Source: an uncultured Granulosicoccaceae bacterium
GTDB lineage: Bacteria; Pseudomonadota; Gammaproteobacteria; Granulosicoccales; Granulosicoccaceae
NCBI GenBank assembly: GCA_938007995.1
Contig: CALLLW010000012.1
Coordinates: 47,379 to 111,378 of the forward strand
Length of the DNA: 64,000 nt
Direction of reading: 5' to 3'
Made by a program: the position numbers and the translations under genes. Under the pieces are notes generated by a model that saw nothing but the letters and a program-made list of their open reading frames with translations, did no database searches and was not told where the DNA came from. Below, piece by piece: positions 43,354 through 58,904 of this stretch (position 1 is the stretch's first letter; the number at the start of each line of letters is the position of its first letter).

Positions 43354-44454
43354 ATGGATCTGCTTCAAACCACATTAAATATTGCCGACCGACCTTGCGT
43401 AGTGGTTGGCGATACCGCTCAGGCACTGTTGCTGGCAAACTGGCTGATTCAGCATCAGGCAATTGTTACTGTATTCGGCAACGCGCCATCTTCACAGGCG
43501 CCACATGCTAGATTGAGCTTTACTTCAAAACCTGTCAGTGATGCAGACATTGATCAATGCTGGCTGGTTGTCGCAGCTAGTAATGATAAAGCAGTTAACA
43601 GCAAAATCAGCGCAATGTGTTATGCCAGAAAGTGCTTCTGTTACACAGTTGATGATCCGCAACTCAGCAGCTGGCAGATAAACCACCAGCAGCCATCCCA
43701 CGGGCGTGTCGCTCTGGTAGGTGCAGGCCCGGGTGATCCCGAGCTACTGACTCTACGCGCTCTGCGACTAATCCGACAGGCTGACGTGATTGTCTATGAC
43801 CGACTGGTCAGTGAAGCTATCATGAGCTGTTGCAACCCTGCCGCTGAACTGATTTATGCAGGCAAGGCAAAGTCAGATCACGCCTTGCCGCAGGAAAGTA
43901 TTAATCAGTTGTTGGTCAGACTGGCACAGCGACCGGCAAATGTCGTGCGGCTTAAAGGCGGTGATCCGTTTATTTTTGGTCGCGGTGGTGAGGAAATAGA
44001 AACGCTGGCAGAGAATCAGGTACCGTTCGAAGTGGTGCCCGGCATCACAGCTGGTAGTGGCTGTGCTGCATTTGCGGGCATACCATTAACCCATCGTGAC
44101 TATGCACAAGCTTGTGTCTTTGTTACCGGACACCTTCGTGATGGCGAGATAAATCTGGAATGGGAACATCTGGCCACACCATACCAGACAGTGGTTGTAT
44201 ACATGAGCCTTACCGGTCTGGATAAAATTTGTGCAGCGCTTATTCGCCATGGACGCGCACCGGATACACCCGCCGCTCTGGTACAGCAGGGCACTCACCC
44301 GGAGCAGAAGGTGTACACCGGCACCATTGCAGATCTGCCAGCGTTGATCGCGAAAAGTGAAGTCAGCGCACCAACACTGCTAATTATTGGTGAAGTCGTG
44401 CAGCTGCGGGATAAATTAAACTGGTTTACCAGTGAGGCGAGTACGTCGAGTTGA
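43354..44454 (+). CDS. cobA: uroporphyrinogen-III C-methyltransferase with a short, degenerate CysG-N-like N-terminal extension
   Basis: 366 aa. The C-terminal roughly 250 aa form a SUMT domain ([42 protein letters not shown]). The N-terminal roughly 110 aa resemble the CysG Rossmann part, but VVVGDTAQA replaces the Gly-rich motif. Confidence 0.75.
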
Positions 44455-44472: not shown

Positions 44473-45972
44473 CTAACCCTCTGCGCTAAACACCAATGCA
44501 TCACCGACAAGTTGATGCAAACTGATGATTTGATCCATCTCAAAACCATAGTACGGCAGCACTTTCGCAAACTGACTTTTACAAATAGCGCAAATAGCTG
44601 CCATGTGGGTAATGTGATGCTTATCATTCACCTGCTTAAGCGCCTGCATCCGAGGTAGCGCGCCTTTCACCCGCAGCTCTAATAGATCGTCAGTTAAAAG
44701 TCCACCGCCACCACCACAGCAGAAGGTGGCCTCCTTAGTTGTGTTGCGCGGCATCTCATAAAAATAATTGCAGCTCGCATTAATCACATCACGCGGTATG
44801 CTGAACTGCCCGCCGGGCTTTGACCCCATACGCGAGGCTCGAGCCACATTGCAGGAGTCATGATACGTTACGCGCTTTGCATCGTTAGCTGACCTATCAA
44901 GCCTTAGTCGCCCCTGCTCTATCAGATCATGTGTAACTTCCACCATATGCTGCGGCAATGGATAGCGACGATCAAGAAAATCAAACGGCCCGGCCAGTTT
45001 ATCCAGATGATTATAAGCAACCCGCCAGGCATGTCCGCACTCACCAAACACGATTCGTTTGACCCCGAGCTCTTGAGCTGCTTCACGAATGCGGATCGCG
45101 ATCTTTTGCATGTTGCCCATGCTGCCGGTAAACAAACCAAAGTTTGCCGCCTCTGATGCGTGCGACGACAGGGTCCAGCTGATACCTGCCTGATGAAACA
45201 CTTTGGCATAACCAATCAGTCCATCGACATGAGGTTCGGCAAAAAAATCTGCTGATGGGGTTACCAACAATACCTCAGCACCAGCTACATCCAGTGGCAG
45301 CTTTACCGGCACATTGATATCGTCGAGAAGATCTTCCTCAAGGCCTTCCAGCGTATCTGCAAGCGCAGGCGCAGGCAAGCCAAGGTTATTGCCCAGCTTG
45401 TGGACTTTGCCGATAATCTCTGTGCAATACTTTTGACTCTTGCCAATGGTCTGCATGATGTCGCGTGCCGCCATTGACACTTCGGACGTATCAATACCAA
45501 ACGGACAATACACTGAGCACCTGCGACACTGTGAGCATTGATGATAATAGGTATACCATTTATCGAGCATCTGCTCGTCAAGATCCTCAGCACCAACCAG
45601 CTTAGGCAGGTACTTACCCGCCAGCGTGTAGTGACGTTTATACACTGAGCGCAACAGATCCTGCCGTGCAACCGGCATATTGTTTTTATCACCGGTACCC
45701 AGAAAGTAATGACACTTATCAGTGCATGCACCGCACTTAACGCAGGTATCCATATAAACTCTCAATGCACGAGAGTTATTGACCATGTCACCAAGCTTGT
45801 TAATCGCCACTTCCTGCCAGTTGTCGATCAACTCTTCAGGATAACCCAGCGCTAGATTCAGCTCCGGCTTTGAAATAAACGGCTTGCTGTGTGCCATTGT
45901 GCCGTCTTTTACTTTTGGCACCTCTAGCGAGTCATTAAGCTCGGGTACTCTAAAGTCAGGCTTTTTACTCAT
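44473..45972 (-). CDS. dsrK: DsrK/HdrD-like iron-sulfur (CCG-domain) protein
   Basis: 499 aa. It has two ferredoxin-type clusters (CVKCGACTDKC, CSQCRRCSVYC) and CCG-domain cysteines (YHDSCNVAR, FCCGGGGG). It overlaps the upstream membrane cytochrome gene by 8 nt. Confidence 0.7.
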   Translation of the reverse strand: MSKKPDFRVPELNDSLEVPKVKDGTMAHSKPFISKPELNLALGYPEELIDNWQEVAINKLGDMVNNSRALRVYMDTCVKCGACTDKCHYFLGTGDKNNMPVARQDLLRSVYKRHYTLAGKYLPKLVGAEDLDEQMLDKWYTYYHQCSQCRRCSVYCPFGIDTSEVSMAARDIMQTIGKSQKYCTEIIGKVHKLGNNLGLPAPALADTLEGLEEDLLDDINVPVKLPLDVAGAEVLLVTPSADFFAEPHVDGLIGYAKVFHQAGISWTLSSHASEAANFGLFTGSMGNMQKIAIRIREAAQELGVKRIVFGECGHAWRVAYNHLDKLAGPFDFLDRRYPLPQHMVEVTHDLIEQGRLRLDRSANDAKRVTYHDSCNVARASRMGSKPGGQFSIPRDVINASCNYFYEMPRNTTKEATFCCGGGGGLLTDDLLELRVKGALPRMQALKQVNDKHHITHMAAICAICKSQFAKVLPYYGFEMDQIISLHQLVGDALVFSAEG

Positions 45973-46729
45973 GACCTGCTCCTGTACTTACATCTTTGGT
46001 GCTTCGACTTTCTATTGCCCGCGGATCAAGGTTCCGTTCACGCGAATCATCCACCTGATTGCGAGACGGACTAAAAAACAAACCCGGCGCATGCAGTAAT
46101 TTGGAAAAAGGAAAGATAATCATAAGAACAGCGACAAGTAACAAATGTACAAACAGCGTAAAGCCACCTGGAAACGATTGAAACTGCAGCGACAAAACAC
46201 CTGCAATAAACTGCTTAAGTAAGACGATATCCGGATACCAGAAATACCGCATTAGCAAGCCGCTTGCTGCAATCGACAACAACAGCACCAGCATCAGGTA
46301 ATCAGAGGGCGCTGAGATCACCCGCACTCTGTCCACCACTACCCGTAGCACCAGCAAACCGGTAAGCCCTGTGACCATTGCAAAACTTGCGTACTTGACA
46401 ACAGGCACCAATAACCAGATCCAGCTCCACACAGGATCGGTAAAAAACTGCAGATGGTATAGCAACACGACAAGCAGACCAGCATGGAACAACCAGCTCA
46501 ACAGCCAGGTAACTTTTGCAGCTTTAAAAAGGCTTTGAAAAACCAGCACCTCTTTAGTTAATCGCCACACCACACCAATACGACTGGTGGGTGCCGGTGT
46601 GGTTGGTATTTTTAACGGTGCCGGTGTCGAATAGTATTGGTAGATTTTTCTGCCGGTACCAAAGATAAAAACCAGGCCGGCTATGATCAGTAGAATACTC
46701 ATTACGACGACTTCACCGGTTTCAGGCAC
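45965..46729 (-). CDS. dsrM: DsrM/NarI-like membrane di-heme cytochrome b
   Basis: About 245-254 aa with 5-6 TM segments, conserved His residues in the TM segments (LFHAGLL, LYHLQ, FVHLLL) and FPFSKLLH. The start is either the GTG at 46729 or the ATG at 46702. Confidence 0.65.
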   Translation of the reverse strand: MPETGEVVVMSILLIIAGLVFIFGTGRKIYQYYSTPAPLKIPTTPAPTSRIGVVWRLTKEVLVFQSLFKAAKVTWLLSWLFHAGLLVVLLYHLQFFTDPVWSWIWLLVPVVKYASFAMVTGLTGLLVLRVVVDRVRVISAPSDYLMLVLLLSIAASGLLMRYFWYPDIVLLKQFIAGVLSLQFQSFPGGFTLFVHLLLVAVLMIIFPFSKLLHAPGLFFSPSRNQVDDSRERNLDPRAIESRSTKDVSTGAGHE

Positions 46730-46764: not shown

Positions 46765-47103
46765 CTACACACAGCCGGTAGGCTTTGGCAAACCTGCATA
46801 CTTGCAGGCCTGCTTCGCAGGACCTTGCGGGTATAAGTCATACAGGTATTTGGCGTTGCCGTACTCTTTACCCAGCTTTTTGCCAATGGCTTTTGTCAGA
46901 ATACGCACCGCTGGCGCGATTTCGTATTCTTCATAATATTCACGTAAAAAATTGATCACAGCCCAGTGGCTGTCAGTCAGTTCGCAATCGTCTATTGCAG
47001 CCATAGCGAGCGCCACATCAGGCGCCCAGTCTGAATGCTGTTCAAGGTAACCTTCTTCATCAGTGGCAAGGGTTCTGCCACCAACTTCAATGCTGTCGGA
47101 CAT
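46765..47103 (-). CDS. dsrC: DsrC-type sulfur relay protein (TusE/DsrC/DsvC family, both C-terminal cysteines present)
   Basis: 112 aa. The C-terminus is PAKQACKYAGLPKPTGCV. It has the penultimate Cys plus a second Cys 11 residues upstream, which is the DsrC rather than the TusE pattern. Confidence 0.8.
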   Translation of the reverse strand: MSDSIEVGGRTLATDEEGYLEQHSDWAPDVALAMAAIDDCELTDSHWAVINFLREYYEEYEIAPAVRILTKAIGKKLGKEYGNAKYLYDLYPQGPAKQACKYAGLPKPTGCV

Positions 47104-47349: not shown

Positions 47350-50300
47350 CTACAACTCAACCACCGCGCAATTATCGAACACAGCCGAGTCGTCAGCATA
47401 CAACGTGACCGCACCACGTGCGGTACCGGCAGGCGCAGTCTCGCCCACGACAACCGTGGTGAATGCCGTACCAGCTACGCTGCTTTCGTTGCTTGCGAGC
47501 CCGGTGAACTCAACATCTGAGAAGCCGATGGTCAGACTTGCAAAGGCGGTCGAGCTGGCTGAACAACTCACCGCATACTCGCTGCCCGGAGTCGCCTCAA
47601 ACTCCTGAAATGCACAGCTGGTGGTGCCAAGAACCAGCGCATCTGTGTTGTCCGGCCCCAGCGCTTCAATCTCGGTTGAACCACCACACGAAAGCCACTC
47701 GGTACCACCGTTAGAAAAATCACCGTTACTCAGCAGGTTATCTGCAGGATCAACCACGACCACCGGCTCTGGTGTTACCCCACCGGTAATCACTACACCG
47801 CAGCTGTCAAACGACGCGTCTGATTCACCGAATAACGTCACTGCACCATAGCGCGCGTTATCTGAAGCTGTGATTGCGATTGCGCTATTCTGAAAAAGCC
47901 TGCCGACCACTTGCTGTTGTTGAGAACTTAGCTCGGCAAATGTGCTGTCGTATTCAATGAAAGAAACACTGGCAAAGCCGTCGTTGCTCTTGCCAACACA
48001 GGCGAGCGAATATTCAGCACCTGGAATCAAAGTGAACTCCTGAAACAGACATCCGCTGTTAGTGAGGTTGACCGACTGCCCCCCGTTGACTCCGTCAGTA
48101 GTCAGCGTTTGTTGTCCACCACATCCAAACCAGCCATCGAGATTATTGGTGAATGTCGAGTTGATCAGTAATTCGTTCACAGCAGGCTCTACAGCGACCG
48201 GAACAGTAGTAGCCAGATCTTCAAGCACAATACAATTATCAAAATTTGCCTGATCTGCAGCATAAAGGGTAACCGCACCCTGGACGCTGCCAGCCGGAGC
48301 CACAACCGACGTAGTGATCGGTGCACCACTGGTGCTGGTGACTGCAACAAGCTCAGATTCCAGCGCTGCAAAGCTTGCATCACTAACGCTCAGCTGGACA
48401 CTCGCAAAGCCTGCAGGTGCTGCAGCATCACATCTCAATGTATAGGTTGCATTCGGTGTGACGCTAAACTCCTGAAACAGGCAACCGCCTGAACTCAAAG
48501 AGGCAGTACCACCACTGACAGTCGCCTGACCACCGCACGACACCCAGTCAGATAAATCTGTATTAAAACCACCGTTGCTTACCAGGTTATCCGGATTTTC
48601 AGGGCTGGATGGCGCAATCACCGGTGCAGCAGAAGGCAGCAAGGCTTGTCTGTTTACAGCACCTGACTCATAGGAAACCTCAAGCGTTTGACCACCGCTG
48701 CGCTGAAAGTACTCAACCACAATGTCGTGCTCTCCCGCGGTCAGGTTGATGCTGCCTTGTTGCTCTTCGGCACGGTGCAATCCATCGTTATCAACGACTA
48801 GCTGGCCATTTACATACAATGCGCTGCCATCATCCGATACAGTGTAGAACGTATATTCATCCGCTTGTGAAACATACAGTGTTGTGTTGTAGCGAAAACC
48901 GAAGAATCGCGCTTGCTCTTTCGGGTCAGTAGAAAACTCTGTCAGCTCGCCAGTGGCGACCGGTGTTAGCGCGTCAAAATCCGGCAATGCAGCCCACGTA
49001 CCTTCATAGTATTCATACGCGATCACTGCTTGCGATGGTGCTGAAGGTGTTGAAGGCGCTGCGGGTGCTGTCGGGTTAAAAGGAATCACCTGTTCAACCG
49101 GCACCGCCTGGTTACCCTGGTCATCCAGCGGCACCAGAAATGCTGCCAGACTCTGTTTGGTGATCAGCGGTCCCTGCATCTGCACTGATAGAGACTCCAG
49201 CCCGCCCTTTTCGAAGTAAGTAACAACAATTTCATGCGTACCGGCAGATAAGCCAACACTGCCCTGAGCTTCTCTCGAAGCGTGTAACCCGTCATTATCT
49301 ACAACCAGACGACCATTAACGAATAACTGACTACCATCATCCGAGTTGGTAAAGAAAGTGTAGTTACCTTCCTCTGTGATCGATATGGTTGCGCTAAAGC
49401 GAAATCCAAAGTTTTCATCCGCCAACCTTTCGCTGGTGCTGAAATCACCGGTCTCACCAGTTGCCACTGGTGTTAATGCGTCAAAGTCAGGTAACTCATC
49501 CCACTCACCTTCGTAATACTCAAAGCTAATAAAAGACGGGGGTTCAGGAACATTTTCAGCGGTTGGATTGATCATAATAGTATGGCCTTCTGATGGCACA
49601 CCGTTTTGATTCAGCCCGAACACCCAGTAGTAACCTGGAATAAGAACGTTGCTGTTAGAAGGCAACTGTACGTTGTAGTTTCCGTTAGACGTCTCGACGA
49701 ATCCCAGTGGAATAAAACGCTGATCAGTTGAATGATGATGCGTCAGTGCCATCAAGCGCACCATCGAAAAGGTTTGCAGACCGGCAGTGGCTGAAAACTG
49801 CAGTGCCTGGCCGGCTATCGCCTCTGCTGGTCCTGATGCAATTTGCGGCCGGGTAGCGCGAGTTCCATCATTATTAAACAGATACGGCGGCTCGAATATC
49901 TCACCGTTTCTCTGATTGGTGGCGCAGTTTCCGCACAGCCCGCTGCCCATCGCCGCGACGCGGCCATCCTTAAGCAACATGGCGGTAGAGTGATAGTTAC
50001 GTGGTCTGCTGTGCGGTGCAAGCACCTGCCATTGACCTGTATCCGGATCCCATAGCTCTGGAAACAGTTGTGTTCCTTCATCAGAAAACTGTATCCCACT
50101 ACTGTTGCCACCAATCACCAGCACCTGACCGTTCGGCAGTACCACACTATCCTGCATTGAACGTTCATACGTCATTGGTTCGGTAGCAGTGACTACCGGC
50201 GTGGTGCCATTTAAATCAATGGTCATAGCCGTATTCACCGCCGGCTGACCACCACCTGCAACCAGCATCTTACCGATGTCATACATCACAGTAGTATTGT

Positions 50301-51219
50301 ACAAACGGTGCTGGTCTTCAGACTCACGCTTACCATGTGGTATGACCGTAGAACCGTTGGTGTAAAGGTCAAGACTGAGTAGATTAGTCGTCGGCCCCGG
50401 GTGAAACAGGCTACCGTCGGGTGCGACATTAAACGCAGGAAACCAGGTACGCTGATTATTCTTCGCTGCAGTATCACTGGTGATCTGTTGTAAATTTGTA
50501 CGCGGCAGGGTTCTCCAGCCTTCCCCTTCAGTCCACAACTCGGAATTGGCGGTGGTTTTACCCAGTGCAATAAAAACCTGACCACTCGGCAGTGTGGTAC
50601 TGGTGGGATACCAGCGCGGTGTATTCAATGAATCGGTCAGGCTCCAGCTGTTACCGTCAAACACACTGTTGGTGGTTATAGTCGCACCACCACCTGAAGT
50701 AAGTACATTGCCATCAGGCAGCATCGCCACACCGGAGCAAAACATGTTGTGGTTATCATTCGGCATATCAGTGAACGATTCTGTTACCGGGTCGAAGATT
50801 GAGCCATGTGTAAAAGCCGTGTTTGTACCAAACCCCTCTACCCTTGTTGAAGACCAGGTCAGCAACCGGCCGTCAGGCATATGCGCAGCACCAGTGGCAA
50901 TCTGAGGCCACTCAATTAGATCACCCCAGCGTCCAAGGTTGATATTTTCAGACGCATCGTGCGCTGCACCAATCTCCGGCGGTACCACAAAAGCCGGGTA
51001 GTCCTGCGCCAGCACCGCCCAGTACTCATCATCTTCGATAATGCCGGAACTGGAACCGGACGTGCTATCAGTACCACCTGTACCACCGGAAAAATCGGTG
51101 TTGCCGGTTTCAGGCACCGCTGACGACTCAGCACCTTCGATCCCGAGCGGGTCACCGTCACACGCGGACAGTAAGACTGAAAGAACCGCAATTGCAGAAC
51201 AATATTTAACAGCGGACAT
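47350..51219 (-). CDS. secreted lipoprotein: galactose-oxidase-like copper radical oxidase (AA5-type) + DUF1929-like Ig domain + 2 PA14 domains + 3 CBM4/9-like modules
   Basis: The preferred start at 51219 is preceded by AAGGAG and gives a lipobox (AVLSVLLSAC). Candidate active-site motifs are HNMFCSGVAMLPDG, RWYPTSTTLPSG, RNYHSTAMLLKDGRV and LTHHHSTDQRFIPL. There are two YEYYEG...SDDGS.L.VNG.LVVDNDGLH PA14 repeats and three N(L)(L/V)SNGxF...W..CGG...C.FQEF...FD.C modules. Confidence 0.7.
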   Translation of the reverse strand: MSAVKYCSAIAVLSVLLSACDGDPLGIEGAESSAVPETGNTDFSGGTGGTDSTSGSSSGIIEDDEYWAVLAQDYPAFVVPPEIGAAHDASENINLGRWGDLIEWPQIATGAAHMPDGRLLTWSSTRVEGFGTNTAFTHGSIFDPVTESFTDMPNDNHNMFCSGVAMLPDGNVLTSGGGATITTNSVFDGNSWSLTDSLNTPRWYPTSTTLPSGQVFIALGKTTANSELWTEGEGWRTLPRTNLQQITSDTAAKNNQRTWFPAFNVAPDGSLFHPGPTTNLLSLDLYTNGSTVIPHGKRESEDQHRLYNTTVMYDIGKMLVAGGGQPAVNTAMTIDLNGTTPVVTATEPMTYERSMQDSVVLPNGQVLVIGGNSSGIQFSDEGTQLFPELWDPDTGQWQVLAPHSRPRNYHSTAMLLKDGRVAAMGSGLCGNCATNQRNGEIFEPPYLFNNDGTRATRPQIASGPAEAIAGQALQFSATAGLQTFSMVRLMALTHHHSTDQRFIPLGFVETSNGNYNVQLPSNSNVLIPGYYWVFGLNQNGVPSEGHTIMINPTAENVPEPPSFISFEYYEGEWDELPDFDALTPVATGETGDFSTSERLADENFGFRFSATISITEEGNYTFFTNSDDGSQLFVNGRLVVDNDGLHASREAQGSVGLSAGTHEIVVTYFEKGGLESLSVQMQGPLITKQSLAAFLVPLDDQGNQAVPVEQVIPFNPTAPAAPSTPSAPSQAVIAYEYYEGTWAALPDFDALTPVATGELTEFSTDPKEQARFFGFRYNTTLYVSQADEYTFYTVSDDGSALYVNGQLVVDNDGLHRAEEQQGSINLTAGEHDIVVEYFQRSGGQTLEVSYESGAVNRQALLPSAAPVIAPSSPENPDNLVSNGGFNTDLSDWVSCGGQATVSGGTASLSSGGCLFQEFSVTPNATYTLRCDAAAPAGFASVQLSVSDASFAALESELVAVTSTSGAPITTSVVAPAGSVQGAVTLYAADQANFDNCIVLEDLATTVPVAVEPAVNELLINSTFTNNLDGWFGCGGQQTLTTDGVNGGQSVNLTNSGCLFQEFTLIPGAEYSLACVGKSNDGFASVSFIEYDSTFAELSSQQQQVVGRLFQNSAIAITASDNARYGAVTLFGESDASFDSCGVVITGGVTPEPVVVVDPADNLLSNGDFSNGGTEWLSCGGSTEIEALGPDNTDALVLGTTSCAFQEFEATPGSEYAVSCSASSTAFASLTIGFSDVEFTGLASNESSVAGTAFTTVVVGETAPAGTARGAVTLYADDSAVFDNCAVVEL

Positions 51220-51370
51220 GGATAACTCCTTTTTCATCACCCACGCGTCGCGCAAAAAAGACACCGACTCGTCTCTCTGAAGATCGATATCACAAAATCG
51301 GCAACGGGCACTCAAGTTCTATTAAACTGAAGATCGACAAGTCTGATCGATAAAACCGCCTGCTCTGCCT

Positions 51371-51685
51371 ATGACACAAAAAACACTGCTCTGCGACTTA
51401 ACTGACATCCCGCTGCATGAGATGAGATGCATTTCACTGTCGAACAGAAACGTACTGGTTGCCCACACAGAGTACGGCGTTTATGTAAGTGATGAGATAT
51501 GCACTCACGAAGACGCACGCCTGTGTGATGGCAACCTGACTGGCACGCTGGTTAAGTGTCCGCTGCATGGCAGCCGCTTTGACCTGACCACAGGCGCAGT
51601 GCTTGATGATCCGGCGGATATGCCACTGCAGATCTACCCGGTATCCATAGAGAACGGTTCTGTCTATGTTACGTTTCCAGCATAA
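51371..51685 (+). CDS. Rieske [2Fe-2S] ferredoxin-type protein
   Basis: 104 aa. CTHEDARL and CPLHGSRFDL supply the full CxH...CxxH ligand set. Confidence 0.8.
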   Translation: MTQKTLLCDLTDIPLHEMRCISLSNRNVLVAHTEYGVYVSDEICTHEDARLCDGNLTGTLVKCPLHGSRFDLTTGAVLDDPADMPLQIYPVSIENGSVYVTFPA

Positions 51686-51774
51686 CAACCCGGCCAACAC
51701 CGTCACTGGAAACCAAACAGCTTACACCACTGCTTTTTCGAACCAGACACCCTTGACAACGGATAACGTAAATT

Positions 51775-52917
51775 TTGTCAAAGCATGAAATTGAAGTCAC
51801 ACCAATAGCAAGCCCTGAACTGATTCACTCTGTCATACAACGCGTTGCAACAGGGCCGGAACTGAGCAAAAACATATCCTATGACGAAGCTCGTTCAATG
51901 ATGAACGCACTTCTCAGTGGCTCGATTGATCCGGTGCAGGCAGCTGTGTTTTTGATCGGTCTGCGTATGAAGCGCGAAACCGATACAGAGCTGCAAGGTA
52001 TCCTTGATGCGTTGTATGAAAACACCTCACAGGTAGCTGCCAACTGTGATGAAGTCGTTGCATTCTCCGATCCTTTCAACGGATTCAACCGCACCATACC
52101 GGGCTCACTGGCCATGCTGCCGGTGCTTGCTGCCTGTGGTATAAATGGCTACCTCACCGGAGTGGATCAGGTCGGGCCGAAATACGGAGTGACTCATCAT
52201 CTAATCCTGCAGGCACTGGGCGGCAATCCGCTACAAACAATGCAGACCGTTGCAGAGCGATTATCAGAGCCCACGATTGGCTGGGGCTACGCAGATCAAT
52301 CAGTTTACTGCAAACCGCTATACCAGCTGGTGGACCTTCGCGCAAAGATTGTCAAACGACCTGCTCTGAGCACTACCGAGGTGATGATCACACCGATAAC
52401 AGGTGAGGCAAAAACGCACCTTGTTTCTGGCTATGTACATAAGCCGTACCGGCAAATATACGCCATGCTTGCAAAACACAGAGGCCTGGATTCACTCTTA
52501 CTAATACGCGGCACCGAAGGTGGTGTCATACCCTCTTTCCGTGCCAAAGCACATTTTGTACGTTACATTGACAATAAAGACGCAGAGGAACACGATGCTG
52601 ACCTTGAACCACTACAGCTATTCAGATCGTACCGCGCAGAAGACATACCTGATTCAACTCCTAAAGCGCTTGCCCCGAAGTACCATGGCACACAATGGGA
52701 TAACAAGGCACTCGCAGCCTATTGCGGCCAGCAAATAATAAATGCCTTAAACGGTGAACAAGGTGCAGCATACGATGCCGCCGTGCTTGGCACCGCACTG
52801 ACACTCTGGCATGCAGGTAAGAGCCCGACTTTAATCGAAGCCACTACAAATGCCCGCAACGCAATCGCCTCAGGCGAGGCGCTGGAACGTTTTAATAACG
52901 GACTGAATGCGACCTAA
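51775..52917 (+). CDS. TrpD-like (glycosyltransferase family 3 fold) protein lacking the canonical PRPP-binding motifs
   Basis: 380 aa with a TTG start. The N-terminal helical domain (YDEARSMMNALLSGSIDPVQAAVFLIGLRMKRET) and LLLIRGTEGG resemble anthranilate phosphoribosyltransferase. No GTGGD or KHGNR motifs are present; SDPFNGFNRT and GPKYGVT occupy those positions. Confidence 0.55.
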   Translation: MSKHEIEVTPIASPELIHSVIQRVATGPELSKNISYDEARSMMNALLSGSIDPVQAAVFLIGLRMKRETDTELQGILDALYENTSQVAANCDEVVAFSDPFNGFNRTIPGSLAMLPVLAACGINGYLTGVDQVGPKYGVTHHLILQALGGNPLQTMQTVAERLSEPTIGWGYADQSVYCKPLYQLVDLRAKIVKRPALSTTEVMITPITGEAKTHLVSGYVHKPYRQIYAMLAKHRGLDSLLLIRGTEGGVIPSFRAKAHFVRYIDNKDAEEHDADLEPLQLFRSYRAEDIPDSTPKALAPKYHGTQWDNKALAAYCGQQIINALNGEQGAAYDAAVLGTALTLWHAGKSPTLIEATTNARNAIASGEALERFNNGLNAT

Positions 52918-53012
52918 CCATGGCTATAATACACGGATATATTAAAAGACAACTGCACTCGTTACTGTATGATTGTCAGTAGACAGAAAACTGCCCACCA
53001 ACGCTACAGCTA

Positions 53013-54002
53013 ATGATGAACCCAAAACTTGAAGAAAAGCTCGCCCGTATAAAAAGCGGTCACTATCAGCCTGCCGACTTCATCATCGCAGATGCAAAAG
53101 ACGCAGATATGGCATTCGGCATTGCCGCACCGGGGCCAATACCGTCAGACCCGACCGGTATGAAATTCAAAAGCCGTACAGAGTATCTGGCCGCAATGAA
53201 AACCATGGCACAGAGCGGACTGATCGATATCCTGCTGTGCTCAGCATCAAGCCTTGAGCTACTGCACGACGATAAACTTTTCTCAAATACTGATACAACA
53301 CCGGCGGTCAGGTTGAATGACACCACAGATATCTGGTCTGCGCGAGGATCGAGTTATCGTCAAACACCTTCACAGCCATTTCATAGTGTTGATCTCGGCG
53401 CCATAGATCCTGTCTGTAAGCTCGGTTTATACAGTGTTACTTTCTCTAACGATGTGGATGCAGATTTAAACACACTTCATCACTACCGCGAGTATCGTAA
53501 GCGGGCGCGGGATACAGGCATGAGACATTTCCTTGAAGTGTTTAATCCGGCCTTTGATATCAAACTTAACGGCGCGGATACCGGTGACTACATCAACGAT
53601 ATGATTCTCAAAACCCTGGCGGGTATCACACGACAGGATGCTCCGCTATTTTTGAAGATGCAATTTAACGGACATCGCTGCATGACCGACCTTGCAGCCT
53701 ATGATCCCGCTAATCTGGTGATCGGTATTCTCGGTGGTGCTGCTGGTACCACTCGCGATACGTTTGAACTTGCCCACCAGGCGGAGATGGCAGGCGCACG
53801 CATCGCACTATTTGGTCGCAAGATCAATCAGGCAGAATCTCCGCTGGAGCTGGTGCGCCTGCTGCGTCAGGTGATTGAGAAGACACTGAGCTGCGAACAG
53901 GCAGTCAGTCTTTACCACGAACACCTGACTGAAGCCGGTGTAACACCACTGCGTGATATAAAATCCGATATGCAGATAACTGATCCCGTATTGATGGCAT
54001 GA
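53013..54002 (+). CDS. class I aldolase-like TIM-barrel protein (DhnA/FbaB-like), function unknown
   Basis: 329 aa. The C-terminal half resembles DhnA-type aldolases: FLKMQFNG (candidate Schiff-base Lys region), ILGGAAGTTRD and ALFGRKI. The N-terminal half was not recognised. Confidence 0.45.
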   Translation: MMNPKLEEKLARIKSGHYQPADFIIADAKDADMAFGIAAPGPIPSDPTGMKFKSRTEYLAAMKTMAQSGLIDILLCSASSLELLHDDKLFSNTDTTPAVRLNDTTDIWSARGSSYRQTPSQPFHSVDLGAIDPVCKLGLYSVTFSNDVDADLNTLHHYREYRKRARDTGMRHFLEVFNPAFDIKLNGADTGDYINDMILKTLAGITRQDAPLFLKMQFNGHRCMTDLAAYDPANLVIGILGGAAGTTRDTFELAHQAEMAGARIALFGRKINQAESPLELVRLLRQVIEKTLSCEQAVSLYHEHLTEAGVTPLRDIKSDMQITDPVLMA

Positions 54003-55039
54003 GTGACAAACTCACCATTAACTCTGACAGGTGCGGAATCATATCCGCCTGCACCTGGGCGCTTGATCGTATAAAGATTATTGATCAGTGGCCACAGGAA
54101 GAGCACCTTGCTCAAATCACAAAAACAGACCGGCAAGGCGGTGGCTGTGGTTACAATCTTGGTGTTGATATTCGCAAGCTTGACGGCTCAGTTCCGGTTG
54201 AGGCCATCGGACTTATTGGCGATGACGCTGACGGGGAGTTCCTGTTACAGCAGGCCACTGCAGCAGGTATTGATACCACTCATCTGCAAACCATCGCAGA
54301 TGACCAAACCTCATACACTGACGTTTACATTGTGGCAGGCACAGGCAGACGCACGTTTTTTCACTATACAGGCACAAGCGACTACATAACGCCTGAGCAT
54401 TTTGACTTTACCCGATGCAAGGGCCGCATTTTGCACCTGGGTTTACTGGGTGTTCACCGTCGTATGGACAAGCCGTGGCAGGCAGAGCCCAGTGGCTGGG
54501 CCTGTGTATTAAAAGATGCACGCCGACACGAGCTATTCACCAATCTTGAGCTGGTTTCGATTGAAGCAGAACGCATAGTAGAAATTGCCGGCCCATGCGT
54601 GCCATTGACAGACAGTTTGATCGCTAACGAATATGAACTGAGTGCACTGACCGGTGCGGAGTTATGCAAAACACCAGGTCTGATAGACAAAAATCTTTTC
54701 ACCGCAGCGGCACAAACGCTGTTCAAACAGAGCCGTAGTGCGAATGGACACCTGCAGCTGGTTGTTGCTCATTGCCCTGATGCGGCATACGCAATGACAC
54801 ATGACGGCACAGTGTACTCAAAGCCAAACTTCAAACTGAATCCAGACCTGATTGTCAGCACTGTTGGGGCCGGTGATGCATTCGCTGCAGGCATGCTGTA
54901 CGGCATTCACCAGGGCTGGGAGCTTGATCGAGCTCTGGAACTTGCACATGCAGCGGCTGCCGCGAGTTTAAGATCAGCTACTACAGTTGAGTCTGTCGAA
55001 AGCGTTCAACAGTGCCTTGACTTTGCCAAAGGCGCTTAG
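53999..55039 (+). CDS. PfkB-family carbohydrate kinase
   Basis: 346 aa. It carries GGCGYNLG and the C-terminal VSTVGAGDAFAAGMLYG (PfkB signature 2). There is a 4-nt overlap with the upstream gene. Confidence 0.85.
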   Translation: MSDKLTINSDRCGIISACTWALDRIKIIDQWPQEEHLAQITKTDRQGGGCGYNLGVDIRKLDGSVPVEAIGLIGDDADGEFLLQQATAAGIDTTHLQTIADDQTSYTDVYIVAGTGRRTFFHYTGTSDYITPEHFDFTRCKGRILHLGLLGVHRRMDKPWQAEPSGWACVLKDARRHELFTNLELVSIEAERIVEIAGPCVPLTDSLIANEYELSALTGAELCKTPGLIDKNLFTAAAQTLFKQSRSANGHLQLVVAHCPDAAYAMTHDGTVYSKPNFKLNPDLIVSTVGAGDAFAAGMLYGIHQGWELDRALELAHAAAAASLRSATTVESVESVQQCLDFAKGA

Positions 55040-55145: not shown

Positions 55146-56531
55146 CTACCACAAGCCGGTATCCGGATGAAATTGAGACCATGCAAACCAGAACGCCTGA
55201 TGACTGCCGAGATCATTACCTTCGGCATCAACTGCTCTTATCCCACCGCCATCAAGCACCAGGTTAATATTTTCCACGCCAACTTTTTCATTGCTTGCCA
55301 ACGCAAGAAAGGCTTTGCTGCGTTGAAATGCATATGGCTTGCCTGACTCTGTGATCACTCCAATGATGTCTTCATGCACTGGCAGCCTGGGGTCAATATC
55401 ACCCACAGGAAAAATCGGTCCGTTCGCGTCACGGTTGTTTCGAAAATCCGGGTCTCGTCCCAGTGCCAGCTTCTCAACAAGCACGGTTGTTTGTGGATGC
55501 GCCTGCTTCCAGTCAGCCCATGTTGCAGTGACCACGCCTGCCTGCTTAAGTTGAATACCTTTATCAGCGAGTGATCCGGTCACCGCCTTGCCGGTAAACG
55601 TATCGAAGACAGACCAGGTGTTGAGGTCGTACATGACTTTATTTGAACGACTTAATAAGCCGGACGTCCGCAGCACCGGCCTTTCGATGCTTTCCGGTAG
55701 TTGATCAGTAAAGTACACTTGCGCTGCACCACACAAAGTGCAGTAAGGCATACCAATATCGCGTCCACCCAATGTGTCATTGACCATCTCACGTACTTCC
55801 ATGATCTGCCGCGGGTAGGCACGTGACTCACCATTAATGACAACACCAAAGACAATATCTTCATCGTCCAGCCATTGCGCTTCGTTTGCACTGATTACCT
55901 CGGGGTTATCAGCTGCAGGAATACAACGACACCGGTCATCCGTAGTACCAAAAGGCCGATTGTCGATAAGCACCCCGCCCCAGGATACATGCGTCCAGTC
56001 AATATCTCCCTCAACAAACAGTTTTTCCCACTCAGGCTCAAGCGATGTGAACATCGCTTTTTTTACTGGCAGATATCCTGGAGGTGCAGGGATTTTCCAC
56101 GCGATTAAATAGTCGGTGGTTGTTCCCCATATATTTGCTGTTGCGTATTCAATGCCAAGTAACTTGCCAGCAGCATCAGTCAGAGACTGTAACAGTGGAC
56201 CCCCACTGACAAATCGCATCATGTCACTAACAAGCCACGCTAATCGAGGATCACCGGAATCGGCAATTAGCCGCAATGATATATCCTGGTCGCGTCCCCA
56301 GCCTGCTGTTGCAGCAGGCACTACAAATGCGTCAATCACGGCGTTTTCTATATCTTCTGACAAAGCGCCTGACGGCACAGCCGGCCTTTCACCGAATTTG
56401 TTAATAACGTGCTCCGACAGTTCAGGCACCGGCGGTTCCTGCGCCCCCAGGTTAGGACCTACTAAAAGAAAAAGCAGAACAAACGCAGAGCAACGGAGGT
56501 ACTTAAAAGAAAGTAAGGAGACTGTTTTCAC
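55146..56531 (-). CDS. DUF3179 domain-containing secreted protein (paralogue B)
   Basis: 461 aa with a signal peptide. It is collinear with the 30117 gene and shares long identical runs such as RAYPRQIMEVREMVNDTLGGRDIGMPYCTLCGAAQ and HQAFWFAWSQFHP. Confidence 0.7.
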   Translation of the reverse strand: MKTVSLLSFKYLRCSAFVLLFLLVGPNLGAQEPPVPELSEHVINKFGERPAVPSGALSEDIENAVIDAFVVPAATAGWGRDQDISLRLIADSGDPRLAWLVSDMMRFVSGGPLLQSLTDAAGKLLGIEYATANIWGTTTDYLIAWKIPAPPGYLPVKKAMFTSLEPEWEKLFVEGDIDWTHVSWGGVLIDNRPFGTTDDRCRCIPAADNPEVISANEAQWLDDEDIVFGVVINGESRAYPRQIMEVREMVNDTLGGRDIGMPYCTLCGAAQVYFTDQLPESIERPVLRTSGLLSRSNKVMYDLNTWSVFDTFTGKAVTGSLADKGIQLKQAGVVTATWADWKQAHPQTTVLVEKLALGRDPDFRNNRDANGPIFPVGDIDPRLPVHEDIIGVITESGKPYAFQRSKAFLALASNEKVGVENINLVLDGGGIRAVDAEGNDLGSHQAFWFAWSQFHPDTGLW

Positions 56532-57122
56532 TAGACTGACCTCGATGGCTATTACAGTTCAGACTAGATCGCGCTATCAGAGTTCATCAATGAGAATGAA
56601 ACCAGCACTCACTACTGTCACCTTCGACGACTGATCACCATTCGCGTTCAGGAAAGAATTTGATCAGCTTAACTACGCTGATCGAACAGATGGCATGGGT
56701 TGGTAAAATTGAATAACCAAAATGTGTTTTTGCACTGACATCCGCTGCACAGCTGGCAACGAACACTCTGATAAAACAACACTGTTTATTCTCTGATACA
56801 AAATGTTAGGCGAATTGACACAAGTGTGATTTTTCCTGTCACGCAGCAAAAAACAGAATATGCCTCTCAATTGGTTGTATTTACAACCACTACCTAATGG
56901 GGGTATTATGATTTTCGAGGAACACGCGAGTCACTGCGAATGCGATAGGCGCAGCACGCGGACGCTCTGTGTCACAGGGATAATTGTGAAAATACTTGCC
57001 AGGCAAAAAATACCGTCAATTGTTTTGCGGTTCGGGTACACAACGGAAGTCACTGCGCTCCATGCAGTTGATCTGTTTGTGATTGACCCTGCTAAAACTG
57101 CATTGTGCACGGCGACATTGAA

Positions 57123-57827
57123 TTGAATGGGATTCAATCATGCGTTGCCACTCCGGTGCGCTTGCCGTTTTTCGCCAACAGCGCGAGGCTGCACTCGATT
57201 GCATCGCAAAAATTCAGTAGCCCCAATCTCTCATTCATTCAGATAGCGCAGGAAAAAGCGCTTTGGCATCAGATCAATAGCCAGCAGCCCGATATTGTAC
57301 TGTTGGGTGCTGACAACACTCTGTTGAAAACCAGAGCCATCACTAGACTTGATCTGATTTCTAAACGACCGGTGATCATCGCTCTGATTGACACTACTGA
57401 TGAGGCTACGCTGACCGAGTGCTATAAACAGGGCGCAGATAGAGTCGTCATCATGAAATACTGTACTGCAGAAATTCTCACTGCACTGCTACGCACGTTT
57501 TCGCAACGTGAGCCAAGCTTTCCACCCTATCAAATACGTTCAAACCTACAAACCTTCAGCTTTGATAATGTCAGTGTTCGCCTCACAAAAAAAACATTCG
57601 ACCTGGCGCAATATCTTTTCCTCAACCACGGAGAGCTGCTTTCCAAGTCGACCATACTCCGCGATGTGTGGGGCCTTGAAAGCAACAGTTGTTTGACTCG
57701 AAGAGTCGAAGTTCAAATATCGCATATTCGCAAAGCGCTGGCGCTGGACGGCACTCACGGATGGGAGCTCAAAGTCAGAAGGCGTGTCGGCTATGGCGTA
57801 TTTGAAAAAACACCTGAAAGCACTTAA
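57123..57827 (+). CDS. OmpR/PhoB-type winged-helix regulator with degenerate (pseudo-)receiver domain
   Basis: The C-terminus VRLTKKTFDLAQYLFLNHGELLSKSTILRDVWG...RRVEVQISHIRKAL is a trans_reg_C domain. The N-terminal CheY-like fold has PFFANS in place of the acidic pair and DIVLLGAD (Gly) at the phospho-acceptor position. The TTG start at 57123 was chosen by alignment to the paralogue; the track start is the GTG at 57105. Confidence 0.65.
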   Translation: MNGIQSCVATPVRLPFFANSARLHSIASQKFSSPNLSFIQIAQEKALWHQINSQQPDIVLLGADNTLLKTRAITRLDLISKRPVIIALIDTTDEATLTECYKQGADRVVIMKYCTAEILTALLRTFSQREPSFPPYQIRSNLQTFSFDNVSVRLTKKTFDLAQYLFLNHGELLSKSTILRDVWGLESNSCLTRRVEVQISHIRKALALDGTHGWELKVRRRVGYGVFEKTPEST

Positions 57828-58187
57828 ATAACCGGTGTTAAGGAGTTATCGGGCTCGTAAGCTTTGATCGCTCATTCCGTATCAGATAGCAAGGTCTGGC
57901 GATTGAAGAATATCTGTGAACAGAACATGCACGCGTTGTATTAATTAAAGGTATTTTTGTGCAATTTCCGGCAATACATGAAGCTGGTTCAATAATGAAA
58001 TTTTCTAAACGAATCAAATAGTAAATGATTGATCACGTACTGAACTTATCGAAGCAGGGTTTATCACAGAGGCTGATCGTGGAGGTTGGAATATCCCATA
58101 CATCCACAAAAACAATCTATAGGAGATAGCAGACAAACCTTTGGAACATTGAATCGAACTAAAGTTGGCATCTGCTTAGTACAGGCT

Positions 58188-58904
58188 ATGAATAAACCTT
58201 TCCAGTTACCACCTACAGACCCTAACGTTCCTTTCTACTCGCAAAGCGCAAAATTTCATGCAGCAGTCAGCCAGTGGGTATCTGAACACGGCTTGCCACT
58301 TGAGTTACATCGCTACAAAGAATCTGTATTGCGCCACATAAGCCGCAAGCACCCGCAGGTTGTTGTACTGGGGGTCGACAAGTCTTTCCTGTCGAAAAAT
58401 ATTGTCGCTGAAATATCGACCAGCAACAACAGGCCCACCATCGTGTGCCTGATTGATTCCTGCAGTGAACAGGCTGTGGTTGAGTGTTACGCACAGGGAG
58501 CAGACAGAGTTATCACGTTACAGAACTCTACCCCCGGCATACTGGTCGCACTGTTGGGTCGGCTGATCAGCTACGATCAGGACTATTCGCCATACCACAT
58601 CAATAAACAGATCCAGACGATCAGCGTTGCAGAACTGGATGTCCGCTTAACGAAAAAAACATTCGATGTAGCTCAATACCTGTTCGTCAATCACGGCAAA
58701 CTGATTTCAAAATCCAAGATTCTGCATGACCTCTGGGGACTCGACAGCAGACAATGCCTGACTCATCGCATTGAAGTACATGTGTCTCATGTTCGGCGTT
58801 TGCTGGAACTTGACGGCACTCACGGCTGGGAGATGCGAGCGCGCAGACGCATGGGCTATGGCATTTTTCAAAAACCGGAAAGCTTAAAAACCTATGCCGT
58901 GTGA
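58188..58904 (+). CDS. OmpR/PhoB-type winged-helix regulator with degenerate (pseudo-)receiver domain (paralogue)
   Basis: The ATG at 58188 (MNKPFQLPP...) aligns with the paralogue N-terminus. PFYSQS and QVVVLGVD (Gly at the acceptor position) are present. The C-terminus is VRLTKKTFDVAQYLFVNHGKLISKSKILHDLWG...HRIEVHVSHVRRLL. Confidence 0.65.
   Translation: MNKPFQLPPTDPNVPFYSQSAKFHAAVSQWVSEHGLPLELHRYKESVLRHISRKHPQVVVLGVDKSFLSKNIVAEISTSNNRPTIVCLIDSCSEQAVVECYAQGADRVITLQNSTPGILVALLGRLISYDQDYSPYHINKQIQTISVAELDVRLTKKTFDVAQYLFVNHGKLISKSKILHDLWGLDSRQCLTHRIEVHVSHVRRLLELDGTHGWEMRARRRMGYGIFQKPESLKTYAV

Follow-up and report, generated by a model that had tools for sequence, protein, structure and literature searches.

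The 64,000-nucleotide stretch analysed here (the window), which is part of contig CALLLW010000012.1 of an uncultured Granulosicoccaceae bacterium, contains at positions 51371-55039 four closely spaced genes on one strand, encoding a Rieske protein, a TrpD-like protein, an aldolase-like protein that we call AldL, and a PfkB-family sugar kinase. It is likely that the quartet is no four-enzyme pathway but consists of two independent modules of two genes each, which have come to lie side by side in this lineage, module A comprising the genes of the Rieske and the TrpD2-like protein and module B those of AldL and the kinase, with the roles proposed below. The features are:

51371-51685, plus strand: Rieske gene, 104 aa, first gene of module A
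51775-52917, plus strand: TrpD-like gene, 380 aa, with a TTG start codon, second gene of module A
52918-53012: spacer between the modules, 95 nt, with a sigma70-like match at 52946-52973
53013-54002, plus strand: aldolase-like gene (AldL), 329 aa, first gene of module B
53999-55039, plus strand: PfkB-family sugar kinase gene, 346 aa, second gene of module B, its start overlapping the AldL stop

An independent gene caller, run on the public copy of the contig, gave the same coordinates for all four open reading frames (ORFs), and the AldL and PfkB genes share 4 nt, the ATGA at 53999-54002, which verifies the layout described in an earlier sequence-only reading of this DNA, namely four genes on one strand, the last two with 4 nt in common. 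The other gaps in the quartet are 89 nt (Rieske/TrpD-like) and 95 nt (TrpD-like/AldL). Promoter-like sites are not enriched, with 1 seen in the whole 4.1 kb versus 4.9 expected, and the match in the spacer is not significant.

The sequence-only reading had taken the quartet for one operon and one pathway, and had let this stand or fall with the conservation of the four genes in other genomes. For AldL, the best 80 of at least 583 confirmed matches in a collection with one genome per species were inspected with up to 10 kb on each side, using tblastn with the four window proteins. A PfkB gene was the direct neighbour of AldL in most of them, and a TrpD-like or Rieske gene was found within 10 kb in none (0/80). 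The TrpD-like loci other than the window number 48, of which 44 are metagenome loci and 4 assembly loci, and an AldL or PfkB gene was found in none of these either (0/48), although many of them come from few related clades, so that counts in this set do not stand for independent events. ORF calling in the high-GC loci is crude, and clusters of antisense ORFs were set aside by hand. Overall, the quartet was found in 0 of 128 other loci, and as it is absent from all of them, the single-pathway reading is largely refuted on its own terms. The closest relatives give the same picture: in the nearest AldL relative (L140, 73% identity), the AldL-PfkB pair lies between a Peptidase_S41 and a DoxX gene, and in the nearest TrpD-like relative (L008, 68% identity), the Rieske-TrpD-like pair is followed by thioredoxin-like, ArsR and YeeE genes. 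Both come from the same sample (ERZ6863860), with the two pairs on different contigs and in different contexts, and on one Granulosicoccus contig (4.93 Mb) the two pairs are likewise apart from each other.

A single novel pathway from one four-gene operon, in which the TrpD-like protein would free or transfer a sugar or phosphosugar for the kinase and the aldolase while the Rieske protein feeds an oxygenase step, is therefore very improbable. The shared strand, the short gaps and the lack of a terminator-like site between the pairs would suit it, as would the best NCBIfam match of the PfkB protein, a ribose-1-phosphate kinase, which acts in archaea after a nucleoside phosphorylase whose fold superfamily is also that of TrpD. 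However, that match reaches only 78 bits versus a cutoff of 330, the TrpD-like protein lacks the phosphate and phosphoribosyl pyrophosphate (PRPP) motifs and resembles the non-enzymatic YbiB, an oxygenase partner for the Rieske protein is not present, and the closest relatives have the two pairs unlinked.

Some points nevertheless weigh against the two-module reading. With all genes on the same strand, a spacer of only 95 nt and no terminator-like site in that spacer by a promoter and terminator scan, the quartet may well be co-transcribed in this organism, and a functional link between the two pairs that is specific to this lineage is possible. A literature search also found no paper on either the Rieske/TrpD-like or the AldL/PfkB pair. 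The arrangement in any case calls for caution in genome scans, as four tidy genes on the same strand can be the chance joining of two modules. A recent insertion was considered and rejected, the GC content and GC3 of the four genes being those of their neighbours, and so was a riboswitch or other RNA element, as Rfam gave no match anywhere in the window.

The TrpD-like protein of module A has the N-terminal helical domain of the TrpD fold (PF02885, E=1.9e-14, above cutoff). Its catalytic domain (PF00591) scores 20.9 bits and stays below the 27-bit cutoff, and the NCBIfam models all remain below their cutoffs as well, the closest being PRK07394 (151.6 against 287), with YbiB NF006005 at 85 against 185 and trpD TIGR01245 at 60.7 against 199.05. 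An AlphaFold 2 model from an alignment of 64 relatives (pLDDT 93.1) retrieves in Foldseek both TrpD (4hkm, E=2e-20) and YbiB (4muo, TM-score 0.87 normalised to the target). A literal search of the protein finds neither GTGGD nor KHGN. In profile alignments to solved TrpD structures, the GTGGD position is taken in this family by DP(Y/F)NGFNR, the window segment being SDPFNGFNR, and the position of KHGNR...SSKSGSAD by (S/T)HGVE..GPKFGVTH; at the KHGN(R/K) position the window protein has YLTGVD and the family consensus SHGVE. NGFNR at 102-106 and GTEG at 246 are retained. Alignment of the family profile with E. coli YbiB by hhalign (probability 96.9%) shows that the YNG and GTEG motifs are common to both, with NGFNR aligned to YNGARK, and it places the invariant basic residues R106 and K136 at or beside R92 and R123 of YbiB, which line a conserved anion-binding groove (PMC10123104).

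Because the fold and the likeness to YbiB go along with the loss of the PRPP motifs and with failure at all curated cutoffs, the protein is to be placed in a separate TrpD2-like clade and not with TrpD. It is almost certainly not an anthranilate phosphoribosyltransferase, which had been called unlikely already from the missing motifs, and the name 'anthranilate phosphoribosyltransferase', which public sources routinely give to the family, is accordingly almost certainly wrong. By analogy with YbiB, it most likely binds a polyanion (nucleic acid, nucleotide or acidic partner) in the conserved basic groove, and it is probably not a PRPP or glycosyl enzyme. The further idea that it cleaves a glycosyl or phosphosugar compound and feeds the kinase and the aldolase has no comparative support, as the proteins closest to it in function, TrpD2/YbiB, are not enzymes but bind polyanions.

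In one deep-sea-type clade, in which the context is TusA, a fusion of persulfide dioxygenase (PDO) and rhodanese, and YeeE, several independent contigs have the TrpD-like gene broken into two ORFs at an identical position (L110 9485-10633; L115 9971-10942; L114; L126 4817-5789). Possible causes are decay to a pseudogene, programmed frameshifting, or an error that recurs in assembly.

The partner gene encodes, as far as can be judged from its sequence, a small soluble Rieske [2Fe-2S] ferredoxin or electron carrier. Pfam recognises it clearly (PF00355, E=3.5e-14, 52.9 bits versus a cutoff of 20.3; PF13806, E=4.8e-13), and both ligand motifs, CxH and CxxH, are intact (C44-T-H46 and C63-P-L-H66). 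Among the NCBIfam models none is above cutoff, the best being those of the HcaC type, MocE and NirD.

The coupling of the two genes is found also elsewhere, as 24 of the 48 other loci have the Rieske gene immediately before the TrpD-like one (25 of 49 with the window). With a fixed query set, and counting only TrpD-like loci of at least 8 kb (n=23), a sulfur gene (dsr, sox, YeeE, TusA, PDO-rhodanese or SorA) was detected within 10 kb in 22 of 23 loci, versus 2 of the 80 AldL loci that served as controls. By this count, the Rieske/TrpD-like pair is restricted to sulfur oxidisers. In the window itself, dsrK, dsrM and dsrC end 4.3 kb upstream of the Rieske gene, with a galactose-oxidase-like gene alone between them:

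44473-45972, minus strand: dsrK, by Pfam and by tblastn with DsrK
45965-46729, minus strand: dsrM, by Pfam and by tblastn with DsrM
46765-47103, minus strand: dsrC, by Pfam and by tblastn with DsrC
47350-51315, minus strand: galactose-oxidase-like/PA14 gene, 1289-1321 aa, between dsrC and the Rieske gene

In 13-16 loci, dsrC-H-F-E-B-A on the minus strand is followed by the genes of a TauD protein, a 64-aa protein, a 236-aa protein of no family and a Cas6-family protein on the plus strand, and then by Sel1, Rieske and TrpD-like genes. Other Rieske/TrpD-like members are found beside dsrKMC together with YeeE and a flavocytochrome-c-like gene, and further ones between TusA, PDO-rhodanese fusion and YeeE genes. 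As dsrABEFHC is contiguous in relatives, the dsr cluster of the window, where neither dsrAB nor dsrEFH was found anywhere in the 64 kb, looks rearranged.

It is inferred from these neighbourhoods that the Rieske-coupled TrpD-like clade was drawn into the neighbourhood of genes for dissimilatory sulfur oxidation (dsr, sox, YeeE, TusA, PDO-rhodanese), where module A would probably act as a redox-linked accessory or regulatory factor, with a polyanion as its likely ligand. There are reservations also here. A sister subfamily (37% identity, 348-349 aa, in Methylophaga and relatives) has neither a Rieske partner nor a sulfur context, but lies in a conserved operon, zipA-ligA-TrpD-like-yjbQ, with its start codon abutting the stop of the DNA ligase gene (L143/L144 3985-7475; L130 7892-11451). 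It comprises at least 2,381 clusters, and as it lies with ligA, the TrpD-like family as a whole is not sulfur-specific. In addition, the sulfur linkage could come in part from shared ancestry of the sampled loci, many of which belong to few related clades.

An alternative is that module A is unconnected with sulfur chemistry, and that its TrpD2-type protein serves in general DNA or RNA maintenance by binding nucleic acids, the sulfur neighbours being inherited synteny within one group of Gammaproteobacteria. The alignment to YbiB with its common motifs and basic groove speaks for it, and so does the position of the sister subfamily next to the NAD-dependent DNA ligase gene, which recurs at 21 further similar places and parallels that of ybiB after dinG; a Cas6-family RNA-binding protein and 2-oxoglutarate (2OG) oxygenases in the conserved block beside dsrA point the same way. 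However, the sulfur linkage is seen in three types of neighbourhood (dsrAB-EFHC; dsrCMK/YeeE/flavocytochrome c; TusA/PDO-rhodanese/YeeE) whose members range over 41-68% identity, too much for a single frozen synteny, and the Rieske partner implies electron transfer. A role independent of sulfur is rather unlikely, and a function connected with sulfur oxidation is preferred. In the literature searched, the Rieske partner, the sulfur-gene context and the ligA context of TrpD2 proteins are undescribed, so that two genomic contexts, one of Rieske and dsr genes and one of ligA, are added as second and third for this poorly understood family, and the Rieske-coupled clade, as it tracks sulfur-oxidation genes, becomes a candidate component for research on the sulfur cycle.

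The block between dsrA and the Rieske/TrpD-like pair can be inspected in the related loci L004 (4348-6995), L005 (4542-7075) and L006 (3949-6691), and its Cas6-family protein (PF09559, 165 bits) is an odd companion of dsrA. The galactose-oxidase-like gene at 47350-51315 encodes a very large secreted protein with a galactose/glyoxal-oxidase-like beta-propeller, two PA14 domains and carbohydrate-binding-like repeats, and relatives hold other genes in its place. A siroheme-synthase-like gene (NAD_binding_7/TP_methylase; 43354-44454, plus strand) adjoins dsrK, dsrM and dsrC.

In module B, AldL matches no Pfam family, and among 61 family members compared with any aldolase family there was no match even at E<=1. 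NCBIfam gives weak matches of the C-terminal part only, to LsrF (25.8 bits versus 297) and to ADH synthase (25.2 versus 241). The AlphaFold 2 model (pLDDT 91.2) nevertheless is a single (beta/alpha)8 barrel with eight strand/helix repeats, for which Foldseek finds LsrF (3glc) as the best match at 1e-9, then ADH synthase, archaeal fructose-bisphosphate (FBP) aldolase Ia, LacD, YihT and Cgl0159, all at 12-16% identity. The Foldseek probability is 1.00 for LsrF, ADH synthase and FBP aldolase Ia, and the alignments to LsrF and FBP aldolase Ia span about 290-310 columns. The N-terminal half, which had been regarded as a separate and unrecognised part, belongs, in the light of these alignments, to that one barrel and is its divergent first half.

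Invariant in the family are D27, K29, D30, E175, K215, G241, G242, R269 and K270. K215 lies on strand beta6 (213-217) and aligns in a global hhalign with K203 of LsrF, with low confidence if taken alone, as the local hhalign reaches only residues 239-307. The C-terminal segment with GG (241-242) and GRK (268-270) aligns with the corresponding segment of LsrF, which is the only statistically supported sequence match. With single FbaB and YihT sequences, the AldL profile gave no usable alignment; LsrF alone was aligned, locally in the C-terminal third. We take K203 to be the catalytic lysine of LsrF, and its segment matching GG/GRK to be phosphate-binding in this enzyme family. On the basis of the model, AldL is a divergent DhnA/LsrF-type class I aldolase-fold protein with K215 as candidate Schiff-base lysine, in agreement with the DhnA/FbaB-like C-terminal pattern and the candidate lysine that had been pointed out before, and by analogy it is inferred that the GG/GRK segment binds phosphate. 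Judged by the lack of any Pfam or NCBIfam model for it, the family is new to the curated libraries, and on RefSeq plasmids the gene is always annotated as 'hypothetical protein'.

The kinase is a clear PfkB protein (PF00294, E=3.4e-29, 102.6 bits versus a cutoff of 25.8) with the motifs GG47, NEYE210 (NxxE) and GAGD290 (GxGD) kept. Its 25 NCBIfam matches include no substrate-specific equivalog, as all are far below cutoff, the best being ribose-1-phosphate kinase (78.4 bits versus 330) and IolC (72.6 versus 300).

AldL is widespread, the confirmed matches being in Alpha-, Beta- and Gammaproteobacteria, Actinomycetota, Chloroflexota, SAR324 and Anaeromyxobacter. Clustered at 90% identity, the family has at least 7,987 members, and 1,225 relatives were retrieved from among 1.8 billion representatives. 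A kinase gene is directly adjacent in 66 of the 72 loci that could be evaluated, which are those with at least 1.5 kb on both sides, and it is of the PfkB type in 57 and of the FGGY type in 9 of them; the 4-nt overlap of AldL and PfkB genes is common among the 72. Two single polypeptides, P0250 (727 aa) and P0251 (674 aa), have by Pfam the AldL barrel at the N-terminus and PfkB at the C-terminus, and may be either genuine fusions or artefacts of a frameshift at the 4-nt overlap. The logic of a kinase combined with an aldolase, proposed from the sequence of the window, is thus borne out by a real and conserved couple, and module B is predicted to be a translationally coupled sugar-kinase/aldolase unit. 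The closest AldL homologue among the matches listed (69% identity, in a Granulosicoccaceae metagenome-assembled genome, L009 10001-10981) is one of the 6 exceptions, with no PfkB or FGGY gene within 4.5 kb downstream or 10 kb upstream.

Recurrent neighbours of AldL are the parts of ribose-type ATP-binding cassette (ABC) transporters (ABC ATPase in 42 loci, Peripla_BP_4 in 29, BPD_transp_2 in 28) as well as short-chain dehydrogenases/reductases, aldo-keto reductases, Gfo/Idh/MocA proteins, zinc-dependent alcohol dehydrogenases, GMC oxidoreductases, RbsD/FucU mutarotases, AGE-family isomerases, and ROK and LacI regulators. On plasmids of Aureimonas and Shinella there are operons of ROK, ABC, AldL and 'carbohydrate kinase' genes, with an FGGY kinase also in the Shinella operon, and in Agrobacterium fabrum and Martelella operons of a GlpD-like dehydrogenase, an FGGY kinase, ABC genes, AldL and a SorC regulator. 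It can be proposed that the PfkB protein phosphorylates a ketose or ketose phosphate and that AldL cleaves the phosphorylated product through a Schiff base at K215, most likely into dihydroxyacetone phosphate and an aldehyde, if the chemistry is that of an aldolase. In the operons with a GlpD-like dehydrogenase and FGGY, a polyol would be converted to a polyol phosphate and then to a keto-sugar phosphate, and in those with ROK and ABC genes a ketose would be phosphorylated directly, so that both locus designs would supply a ketose phosphate to AldL. Since it is almost always tied to a sugar kinase within sugar-uptake loci, the family offers a clear starting point for finding a new pathway, and it has culturable hosts in Aureimonas, Shinella, Agrobacterium fabrum, Martelella, Silicimonas and Cohaesibacter.

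Two points count against the proposed role of module B. In Granulosicoccaceae the AldL-PfkB pair sits among housekeeping genes without a transporter, and it is likewise alone in the window. Besides, since LsrF is a thiolase and ADH synthase is of the transaldolase type, the chemistry of AldL may not be a simple aldol cleavage. It would fit the latter point if AldL were an LsrF-like thiolase or transaldolase-type enzyme acting on a phosphorylated diketone or furanone similar to autoinducer-2 (AI-2), which would enter through the ribose-type ABC transporter and receive its phosphate from the neighbouring kinase. LsrF indeed leads the fold matches and is the sole match by sequence, and the usual layout of the loci is reminiscent of lsr in E. 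coli, for which the ABC genes lsrACDB are annotated together with lsrF and lsrG, and where the kinase LsrK is of the FGGY type and the regulator LsrR of the SorC type. Yet identity to LsrF is 12-14%, with the sequence-level match limited to the GG/GRK part at the C-terminus, an LsrG-like isomerase does not recur among the ORFs of at least 100 aa that were screened in the clusters, and the polyol and sugar dehydrogenases, RbsD/FucU and ROK regulators nearby point to ordinary sugars, which makes an AI-2-like substrate improbable.

Also unlikely is a glycolytic or gluconeogenic pair, in which the PfkB protein would be a 6-phosphofructokinase (or 1-phosphofructokinase or tagatose-6-phosphate kinase) and AldL a hexose-1,6-bisphosphate aldolase. 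Such a pair would agree with archaeal FBP aldolase Ia and the tagatose-bisphosphate aldolase LacD being among the top fold matches, with the loci that hold both FGGY and PfkB kinases, which would yield a bisphosphate, and with the housekeeping surroundings in Granulosicoccaceae. However, the PfkB protein scores only 21-53 bits versus cutoffs of 216-353 for the PfkB, 1-phosphofructokinase and hexose kinase models, AldL is unmatched by the models of class I FBP aldolases, and most occurrences of the pair are in inducible loci for sugar uptake that have regulators of their own. In 9 loci, moreover, PfkB is replaced by an FGGY kinase, a family that acts on free sugars. A kinase/aldolase unit for a ketose phosphate in sugar or polyol catabolism is therefore favoured for module B.

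More specific assignments were tried and rejected. The archaeal-type pentose-bisphosphate route fails on the score for ribose-1-phosphate kinase and on the motifs that the TrpD-like protein lacks, and the two genes are unlinked elsewhere. A variant of the sulfoquinovose sulfo-Embden-Meyerhof-Parnas (sulfo-EMP) pathway is not tenable as a general reading, with an AGE/YihS-like isomerase in 6 of 80 loci, no recurrent glycosidase, none of these in the window, and no such class I aldolase family listed in reviews. An analogue of the myo-inositol enzymes IolC/IolJ was dismissed with IolC_N at 72.6 versus 300, the bifunctional kinase-aldolase model at 21 versus 600, and iolB, iolD or iolE neighbours unrecognised. 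The substrate could also not be read from the linked binding proteins via the PDB, where the best matches, 4ry9 and 2ioy, are too distant at only about 107 bits.

Taken together, it is a tentative and somewhat doubtful proposition that both hold at once, i.e., that the Rieske/TrpD2-like pair is an unrecognised accessory of reverse-Dsr-type sulfur oxidation and that AldL founds a new class I aldolase family. If this is true, module A joins electron transfer to a protein that binds polyanions or nucleic acids, maybe together with the TauD/Cas6-like/2OG-oxygenase block beside dsrA, and AldL with its kinase defines a widespread unnamed route of sugar or polyol catabolism in marine and soil bacteria of several phyla.

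Downstream of the quartet, the window contains a gene for a DUF3179 protein of 461 aa (55146-56531, minus strand) with a signal-peptide-like N-terminus, which is convergent with the PfkB gene, and then two tandem paralogues at 57105-57827 and 58086-58904 (plus strand; 240 and 272 aa), each with a C-terminal OmpR-type Trans_reg_C DNA-binding domain, the C-terminal halves of both products being very similar.

Compared with known systems, the Rieske protein is like HcaC, AndAb, MocE and NirD in its size of about 100 aa and in its full CxH...CxxH cluster-binding site, but unlike these it has no oxygenase, reductase or NirB partner nearby, its constant partner being the TrpD2-like protein, and it stays below cutoff in all NCBIfam models. 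The TrpD-like protein has in common with YbiB/TrpD2 (E. coli b0800; 4muo, 8bfr) the two-domain TrpD fold (Foldseek TM-scores of 0.82-0.87, normalised to the target), the exchange of the PRPP motif for a YNG-type motif, the GTEG, the basic groove residues, and also an operon-type coupling, as ybiB directly follows dinG in E. coli and the sister subfamily follows ligA. It differs from YbiB in sequence (about 22% identity over 223 aligned columns), in length (380 versus 320 aa), by an insertion of about 45 residues (about 265-310), and by its partner, which is a Rieske ferredoxin beside sulfur-oxidation genes and not a helicase. With TrpD proper (TIGR01245; 4hkm, 1v8g) it shares the fold, the best Foldseek E-values and the PF02885 N-terminal domain, but it has neither GTGGD nor KHGN(R), stays below the cutoffs of PF00591 and TIGR01245, and is in no locus seen associated with a trp operon.

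AldL shares with LsrF, FbaB/archaeal FBP aldolase Ia and ADH synthase the (beta/alpha)8 barrel, the lysine on beta6, the aspartate on beta1, and the GG and GR(K) motifs in the C-terminal strands. It differs from LsrF, FBP aldolase Ia and ADH synthase by an identity of only 12-15%, the missing PF01791 match, the lack of any NCBIfam score above cutoff, a longer chain with extra N- and C-terminal helices, and the glutamate E175 on beta5. As a module, AldL and PfkB follow the same kinase-then-aldolase logic as LacC-LacD, YihV-YihT, IolC with the DUF2090/Cgl0159 aldolase, and FucK-FucA, the genes being likewise next to each other, overlapping or fused, and situated in loci for sugar uptake. LacD, YihT and Cgl0159 are fold matches of AldL, but AldL belongs to a different, unmodelled family, and unlike in the sulfo-EMP and inositol loci, neither a sulfoquinovosidase nor an iolB, iolD or iolE gene was recognised among its recurrent neighbours. 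The order in the fused polypeptides is aldolase-kinase, the reverse of that in the IolC-aldolase proteins, which are fused in some Actinobacteria. The kinase/aldolase design is thus familiar and TrpD2 proteins are known, and the value of this locus lies in two good leads and not in a single exotic pathway.

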